Shown piece by piece: positions 46,633-46,869 of a stretch of 64,000 nt of DNA. Source of the DNA: Escherichia coli (GTDB taxonomy: Bacteria; Pseudomonadota; Gammaproteobacteria; Enterobacterales; Enterobacteriaceae); the NCBI RefSeq assembly GCF_003334765.1, contig NZ_QOWT01000021.1; one strand, written 5' to 3'. Each line of letters begins with the position of its first letter. The stretch's first letter is position 1. The position numbers and the translations under genes are program-made. The notes under the pieces were generated by a model. The model saw only the letters and a program-made list of their open reading frames with translations. It made no database searches and had not been told where the DNA came from.

Positions 46633-46869
46633 GTAGGCCGGATAAGGCGTTCACGCCGCATCCGGCATCCGAGCACCATTGCCTGATGCGACGCTTACCC
46701 GTCTTATCAGGCCTACAAACTTGTGCCTGAACCGTAGGCCGGATAAGGCGTTTACGCCGCATCCGGCATCCGAGCACCATTGCCTGATGCGACGCTTACG
46801 CGTCTTATCAGGCCTACAAACCTGTGCCTGAACCGTAGGCCGGATAAGGCGTTTACGCCGCATCCGGCA
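46633..46869. repeat. BIME cluster: about 2.3 tandem copies of a 101-bp unit, each with two inverted REP sequences
   Basis: GTAGGCCGGATAAGGCGTT(C/T)ACGCCGCATCCGGCA...TGCCTGATGCGACGCTTAC(C/G)CGTCTTATCAGGCCTAC units begin at 46633, 46734 and 46835 (period 101 bp); between convergent ybaQ and copA. Confidence 0.9.

Follow-up and report, generated by a model that had tools for sequence, protein, structure and literature searches.

The window analysed here, a 64-kb stretch of DNA, corresponds in its entirety to positions 461950-525949 of Escherichia coli K-12 MG1655, and its segment 46300-47200 is 100% identical to MG1655 from position 508249 (offset +461949). The ybaQ gene (46269..46610, plus strand), which encodes a HigA-family antitoxin or DNA-binding regulator according to the open reading frame list and the RefSeq annotation of MG1655 and other strains, converges here with copA (46926..49430, minus strand; annotation and open reading frame list), the gene for a Cu+ exporting P-type ATPase. 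The 315-bp spacer between the two stop codons holds a 237-bp array of REP elements (MG1655 508582-508818) that is extragenic by annotation, lying between the convergent coding sequence ends. The first REP begins 22 nt beyond the ybaQ stop codon (25 nt to the first paired base), and the last REP lies 56 nt from the copA stop codon. Tandem Repeats Finder places the repeat at 46632-46869, with a period of 101, 2.4 copies, 97% matches, no indels, and a score of 455, which makes it by far the strongest tandem repeat in the window; the initial annotation, which had described about 2.3 near-identical 101-bp units at ybaQ/copA, is borne out by this result. A second repeat finder returns two 101-nt copies at 97%, plus a partial third copy in register. 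Open reading frames that run across the array (e.g., 46651-46917, minus strand, 88 aa) were taken as spurious read-throughs of the REPs.

The REP content of the window was surveyed with an exhaustive Hamming scan for the Y, Z1, and Z2 consensus on both strands, allowing up to 30% mismatches. Exactly nine REPs were detected, grouped in three clusters and bearing 0-3 mismatches each. The consensus sequences used, those of the classical REP types, are supported by these near-perfect matches and by the near absence of matches in shuffled sequence, where 19 of 20 shuffles of the window yielded no REP and one yielded a single match. A shorter REP core pattern was found 11 times, compared with an expectation of 1.25. 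All three sites previously named as REP/BIME clusters are recovered by the scan, and their coordinates had been given correctly to within one base.

Reading from ybaQ towards copA, the spacer begins with 22 nt of unique sequence (ggccaaaacatcgcttcatctc, 46611..46632) that is found in REP-bearing alleles only and is replaced by unrelated sequence at the empty-site allele. The first REP (46633..46667) is a Y element whose consensus lies on the minus strand; it has 0 mismatches, a 5'-GTAG foot on the plus strand, and the loop variant TTCAC. It is followed by a short head-to-head linker of 12 nt (TCCGAGCACCAT, 46668..46679; from the sequence and the Rfam alignment), a Z2 element on the plus strand with 3 mismatches to the Z2 consensus (46680..46716), and a tail-to-tail linker of 17 nt (AAACTTGTGCCTGAACC, 46717..46733). 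The same succession is then repeated in a second Y element (46734..46768, minus strand, 1 mismatch; predicted RNA hairpins of -20.9 kcal/mol on the plus strand and -21.3 kcal/mol on the minus strand), a second copy of the 12-nt head-to-head linker (46769..46780), a second Z2 element (46781..46817, plus strand, 2 mismatches; RNA hairpins of -21.4 and -21.9 kcal/mol), and a second 17-nt tail-to-tail linker (AAACCTGTGCCTGAACC, 46818..46834). The array is closed by a terminal Y element (46835..46869, minus strand) that is the same in 7 of the 7 REP-bearing alleles examined, and beyond it lies a right flank of 56 nt (46870..46925), the distal 36 nt of which are common to REP-less alleles in the allele comparison. 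A small hairpin at approximately 46887-46913, directly downstream of the copA stop codon, has a predicted energy of -19.7 kcal/mol and a z-score of only -2.0.

The repeated unit of 101 bp is thus the sum of a Y element (35), a linker (12), a Z2 element (37), and a second linker (17), and the array consists of two full units plus a closing Y, in the order Y-Z2-Y-Z2-Y on strands -,+,-,+,-. The GTAG motif is present at the foot of every REP of the array, mismatches amount to 0-1 of 35 positions in the three Y elements and 2-3 of 37 in the two Z2 elements, and the tail-to-tail linker has the general form AAAC(T/C)TGTGCCTGAACC. Units 1 and 2 of the K-12 array differ at three places, one in the loop of Y, one in that of Z2, and one in the tail-to-tail linker. 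The head-to-head linker TCCGAGCACCAT (46668-46679) fits the linker of the Rfam naRNA4 family better in reverse complement, i.e., it is flipped with respect to the Y-to-Z2 order; the corresponding linker of the gsk/ybaL pair (TTTGGCTCTCGA, 39530-39541) appears unflipped, as judged by eye only.

These features identify the ybaQ/copA array as an ordinary K-12 BIME-2 in which Y and Z2 REPs alternate. In the classification of Gilson, Bachellier, and Hofnung, BIME stands for bacterial interspersed mosaic element, and its components, the REPs (repetitive extragenic palindromes), are imperfect palindromes. BIME-2 elements are defined by a z2 and a y REP joined by a short linker and present in multiple well-conserved tandem copies whose number varies between strains (PMC3333891), and the array displays the Y and Z2 content, the alternation, the short linkers, the variable tandem number, the extragenic 3'-end site, and the dispersal of this family. 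With regard to dispersal, a 901-bp query containing the array matched a median of at least 32 places per genome and was found in all 5,426 of 5,426 complete E. coli genomes. The two units of the array also match the Rfam family RF02564 (naRNA4), with 89.3 and 79.9 bits on the plus strand and 64.0 and 63.6 bits on the minus strand (gathering score 59.5 bits), and the predicted two-hairpin structure of this family is intact in them. The RF02564 model was made from the Y-Z2 units of the BIME-2 REP325 (PMC4550694). Since the model describes Y-Z2 pairs generically and the opposite strand also scores above the threshold, the match marks the Y-Z2 sequence family, and not a function or a specific RNA gene.

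The other two clusters in the window represent one single-unit BIME-2 and one BIME-1. At gsk/ybaL (39495-39578), a Y element on the minus strand (39495-39529) and a Z2 element on the plus strand (39542-39578) are separated by a 12-nt linker and form a single pair, i.e., a one-unit BIME-2, which scores 74.3 bits against RF02564. The distance from the gsk stop codon to the first REP of this pair is 14 nt, with approximately 18 nt to the stem (window 39481-39498). At mscK/ybaM (28009-28108), a Y element on the plus strand (28009-28043, 1 mismatch) and a Z1 element on the minus strand (28079-28108, 0 mismatches) flank a long linker of 35 nt, which contains an IHF-like site (ATTCAATATATTG, 28056-28068) agreeing with 8 of the 9 specified positions of the consensus WATCAANNNNTTR. 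This is exactly the BIME-1 architecture, single-copy at its own locus, and the median genome contains the complete 100-nt element at 19 places. In the supplement to a 2026 preprint (10.64898/2026.03.23.713779), this BIME-1 is listed as REP43, "Convergent, ybaM/mscK", and overlaps a mapped region in a "NusG minus/plus" table that possibly reflects Rho-dependent termination. On either side of the element lies a small hairpin (GGGGCAACATTTAGTTGCCCC at 27959-27979 and GGGGACATTTAGCGACCCC at 28133-28151); the two resemble each other and may reflect a duplicated target or two separate terminators, and the first overlaps MG1655 489902-489933 in a terminator table of that supplement (10.64898/2026.03.23.713779).

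The arrangement of these clusters relative to genes and spacers departs from the initial annotation in two respects. Two of the clusters had been assigned to convergent gene ends, and all three in fact lie there (mscK(+)/ybaM(-), gsk(+)/ybaL(-), and ybaQ(+)/copA(-)); approximately 60% of E. coli REPs are located between convergent genes (10.64898/2026.03.23.713779). REP elements had also been held to explain most of the long spacers, and this does not hold for the window, as only two of the nine spacers longer than 200 bp contain REPs (ybaQ-copA, 315 bp; mscK-ybaM, 211 bp), and the two longest of the nine (tomB-acrB, 545 bp; ybbP-rhsD, 430 bp) are free of REPs. Amongst the 12 convergent spacers, those that hold REPs rank first to third in length (315, 211, and 132 bp), and the other nine reach at most 62 bp; when the REPs are subtracted, 78, 111, and 48 bp are left.

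A number of further structured or repetitive features occur elsewhere in the window. Short REP-like hairpins of the form GCCGGATG...CATCCGGC, in some cases trailed by a T-run, are found at 2862-2889 (fadM/queC), approximately 12313-12350 (amtB/tesB), 35053-35078 (htpG/adk), and 35968-35985 (adk/hemH). They correspond to REP41, REP42, REP44, and REP45, in EcoCyc-style numbering, in the same supplement (10.64898/2026.03.23.713779) and were not among the sites named in the initial annotation; they are single terminator-like hairpins and not BIMEs, and fall outside the Y/Z1/Z2 scan. Rfam matches in the window include the dnaX frameshift element (31407-31471), sroB (ChiX; 45255-45338), and the 4.5S SRP RNA (14507-14603), and RefSeq annotates a second, frameshifted copA product, a soluble Cu+ chaperone (49219-49430), all of which are known K-12 features. 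The qmcA coding region contains, at 53173-53262, a degenerate tandem repeat with a period of 33 bp, 2.7 copies, and 72% matches.

A comparison of the copy number of the 101-bp unit across E. coli strains had been proposed earlier, and the number proves to vary among 60 sampled genomes. The query for this comparison consisted of the unique flanks only (300 bp on each side), with array length taken as the span of the joined pieces; hits were obtained in 5,422 of 5,426 complete E. coli genomes, a single one in each, and 60 rows were sampled at even steps through the ranking of the 5,422 genomes. The most common state in this sample is an array of 137 bp with 3 REPs (18 of the 60 rows; e.g., O157:H7), followed by an empty site with a 57-bp spacer and 0 REPs (14 rows; e.g., ERP001), an array of 36 bp with 1 REP (10 rows; e.g., ESBL 15), and the K-12 state of 238 bp with 5 REPs (9 rows). 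Longer arrays were encountered once each in BL21 (339 bp, 7 REPs) and strain CUVM53 (541 bp, 11 REPs), and in the remaining 7 rows the ybaQ half of the query was unmatched. Approximately 23% of genomes thus have an empty site and approximately 11% are without ybaQ, such that a third of the sampled strains lack the array or ybaQ. Counts over all genomes agree with the 60-row sample: 1,303 show the 90-95% identity characteristic of the empty-site allele, and in 619 less than 80% of the query is covered.

The alleles that were dissected always measure n x 101 + 36 bp and carry a Y element at both ends, the first always with the TTCAC loop and the terminal one always with the TTTAC loop. BL21(DE3) has the K-12 array with one more copy identical to unit 2, and a comparison of the two sequences indicates a recent gain of one unit in BL21 or a loss in K-12. 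In the longer arrays (CX08 and CUVM53), the units differ at up to 5 positions. Strain CX08 has two of the three differences between the K-12 units in its unit 3; the K-12 differences are therefore not fresh private mutations. The recent expansion that had been suggested for this array is consequently upheld in one part, since the difference between BL21 and K-12 is a recent one-unit step, and qualified in another, since the locus varies in both directions, from 0 to 11 REPs. The allele sequences mark it as a two-way, VNTR-like length polymorphism, and the K-12 state could have arisen by expansion or, equally, by contraction. The empty site is not a clean excision, as alleles with and without REPs also differ in some 20 nt beside the ybaQ stop codon. 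The array is a dispensable, lineage-variable insertion, and any function it has, whatever its nature, is dispensable because approximately 23% of genomes have the empty site and approximately 11% are without ybaQ.

At least four haplotypes exist for the wider ybaP-copA interval, which marks it as a hotspot. In K-12, ybaQ is an orphan antitoxin gene of the HigA type, separated from ybaP by a spacer at 46132-46268. In 1,267 of 5,426 genomes, among them ST131, APEC O1, and ATCC 25922, a 303-bp gene for a RelE/ParE (HigB-like) toxin lies immediately upstream of ybaQ (e.g., L014:2100-2402). Both REP-less strains examined (ERP001 and AREA_505) carry this toxin gene, and K-12, BL21, CX08, and ESBL 15, in which REPs are present, have approximately 55 unrelated bp in place of it. 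The two classes are similar in size (1,267 genomes with the toxin gene versus approximately 1,303 with the empty site). Two haplotypes without ybaQ were seen: one retains the last 22 bp of ybaQ together with the empty-site spacer (171 bp; L005:2868-3038), and the other contains an unrelated, REP-free filler of 428 bp (L006:2571-2998).

At the RNA level, the single REPs of the array are predicted to fold into hairpins of -20.9 to -21.9 kcal/mol on either strand, and a Y-Z2 pair can alternatively fold as a single extended hairpin (-46 to -51 kcal/mol). The z-scores of whole-spacer structure relative to shuffles are -6.6 for the plus strand and -7.8 for the minus strand. A scan of the spacer (46611-46925) on both strands for intrinsic terminators, i.e., a hairpin with a U-tract, returned none, and the REP hairpins are without U-tracts. 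Because the spacer has no intrinsic terminator, the REPs are its only strong 3' structures.

Several properties of REPs characterized elsewhere bear on what the array may do. REP325 both stabilises mRNA and terminates transcription in a partly Rho-dependent manner, and convergent gene pairs with a REP show higher expression on average; genome-wide, mRNAs ending in a REP have no longer half-lives, and the effects of REPs are strongly context-dependent (10.64898/2026.03.23.713779). In vivo gyrase cleavage sites are over-represented in BIME-2 elements, mostly in y REPs, independently of transcription (PMC6379681), and TnpA-REP recombines BIMEs in vitro in a reaction that requires the GTAG foot (PMC3333891). 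For the ybaQ/copA array itself, no locus-specific expression, 3'-end, half-life, or gyrase data were found in the literature searched, and queries combining ybaQ, copA, and REP returned unrelated transcriptomics papers only. The searchable text and supplementary-table parts of the REP study contain no entry for this array; the matches there were confined to REP41-45 and a differential-expression row for copA that has no bearing on the array (10.64898/2026.03.23.713779). The available parts of the Topo-seq supplements likewise contain nothing on the locus under the names of its genes (PMC6379681).

It is very likely overall that the array is a BIME-2 whose most probable role, by analogy with these systems, would be that of a bidirectional 3'-end element and a gyrase site, with units probably gained and lost by recombination or slippage. 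Read-through RNA from either ybaQ or copA would fold each REP into a hairpin of approximately -21 kcal/mol, which would block 3'-to-5' exonucleases and could terminate transcription partially and in a partly Rho-dependent way. In this role, the array would be a bidirectional 3'-UTR stabiliser and attenuator, curbing antisense read-through into the opposite gene. At the DNA level, its Y REPs would, as in other BIME-2 elements, be preferred sites of DNA gyrase binding and cleavage. Units could be gained or lost when the 101-bp repeats undergo unequal homologous recombination or slip during replication, possibly with the help of TnpA-REP/RAYT, and such events would yield alleles with 1, 3, 5, 7, and 11 REPs. 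Judged from the allele pattern only, unequal recombination is probably the mechanism of copy-number change.

Other readings of the array differ widely in how well they agree with these data. That it is an assembly artefact or a chance similarity is hardly conceivable, being ruled out by the occurrence of the same sequence in numerous independent complete genomes, MG1655 and W3110 among them, and contradicted by the Tandem Repeats Finder score of 455 and by the approximately zero REP matches in shuffles. A possible, though doubtful, alternative is that the array is a neutral or selfish repeat, a by-product of REP spread (RAYT/TnpA-REP) and slippage without a locally selected function, the convergent site being merely a harmless one. 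The polymorphism in presence and length, with an empty site in approximately 23% of genomes, would be expected of such an element, as would the variety of the ybaP-copA interval with its four or more haplotypes and the presence on every REP of the 5'-GTAG foot needed by TnpA-REP (PMC3333891). This origin is compatible with the preferred explanation, however, since origin and effect are separate questions, and hairpins of approximately -21 kcal/mol in two 3' UTRs would, if they fold as modelled, almost unavoidably affect 3' processing. BIME-2 elements are, moreover, experimentally preferred gyrase sites (PMC6379681), and the hairpin-preserving conservation of the terminal Y among alleles is compatible with constraint.

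By analogy with the model put forward for the homologous REP325 (PMC4550694), the Y-Z2 unit could instead give rise to a two-hairpin RNA of approximately 77 nt that, together with HU, would bridge REP cruciforms and condense the nucleoid. Scores of the two full units and of the gsk/ybaL pair lie above the RF02564 threshold (74-89 versus 59.5 bits), with the two-hairpin structure intact in the units; however, RF02564 is a profile of any Y-Z2 BIME-2 pair, matches the opposite strand as well, and here detects a locus that is empty in about a quarter of strains. In addition, a study that includes the original senior author reports that deletion or overexpression of REP325 leaves nucleoid volume unchanged, that HU, a cruciform, and naRNA4 form no stable ternary complex, and that there are neither REP-REP contacts in Hi-C nor a dependence on HU (10.64898/2026.03.23.713779), and a nucleoid-condensing RNA is accordingly very unlikely at this locus. 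Even less probable is translational regulation of ybaQ, in which the terminating ribosome would be stalled by a REP near the stop codon, with mRNA cleavage and tmRNA tagging as the result. The array is indeed the first structure past the ybaQ stop codon, and REPs at most 15 nt from an upstream stop codon have been reported to stall ribosomes (cited in PMC12306157), but both distances here (22 nt for ybaQ and 56 nt for copA) exceed the 15-nt limit, and stalling at the array was rejected on this ground. A better stalling candidate than the array is the pair between gsk and ybaL, whose distance of 14 nt from the gsk stop codon (about 18 nt to the stem) is near this limit.

REP and BIME elements have been known since the 1980s. 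The array itself is already known, being a textbook case that lies in the K-12 reference genome, and the variability of BIME-2 copy number has been published. The modest value of the locus is that of a clean natural allelic series (0, 1, 3, 5, 7, and 11 REPs, Y-bounded) in thousands of sequenced strains. Flanked by the gene of a small regulator and a thoroughly studied gene for metal efflux, the series is a resource for testing the proposed dual role of REPs between convergent genes as terminators and stabilisers, a convenience and not a discovery. A bolder proposal, which we regard as very unlikely, is that the number of units acts as a heritable dial on 3'-end processing of the copA and ybaQ mRNAs or on local supercoiling in the stretch separating these convergent genes and that, separately, the gain of REPs was linked, historically or mechanistically, to the disappearance of the neighbouring gene for the HigB-like toxin, so that ybaQ became an orphan antitoxin gene. 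If the dial existed, strains would differ in their copper-stress response with coding and promoter sequence unchanged.

Compared with known systems, the array shows no essential difference from BIME-2 elements in general. It differs from BIME-1, RIB, and RIP elements, in which a Y and a Z1 REP are joined by the L linker with its IHF site, in having Z2 REPs, short linkers, and no IHF-like site. The array shares with REPINs the inverted REP pairs with a 5'-GTAG foot that are bound and cleaved as substrates by the E. coli RAYT (TnpA-REP). The single RAYT of E. coli acts in trans, such that adjacency to REPs is not needed, and in the MG1655 annotation no RAYT or transposase-like gene is present anywhere in the window. 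Variation in BIME-2 copy number has been ascribed to TnpA-REP (PMC3333891). A characterized relative is REP325 (yjdM-yjdN), the source of naRNA1-6, which has the same Y-linker-Z2 unit and the same tandem layout. REP325 comprises 12 hairpins between tandem genes of one operon, whereas the ybaQ/copA array comprises 5 hairpins between convergent genes and, for this reason, would act on two transcripts, unlike REP325.
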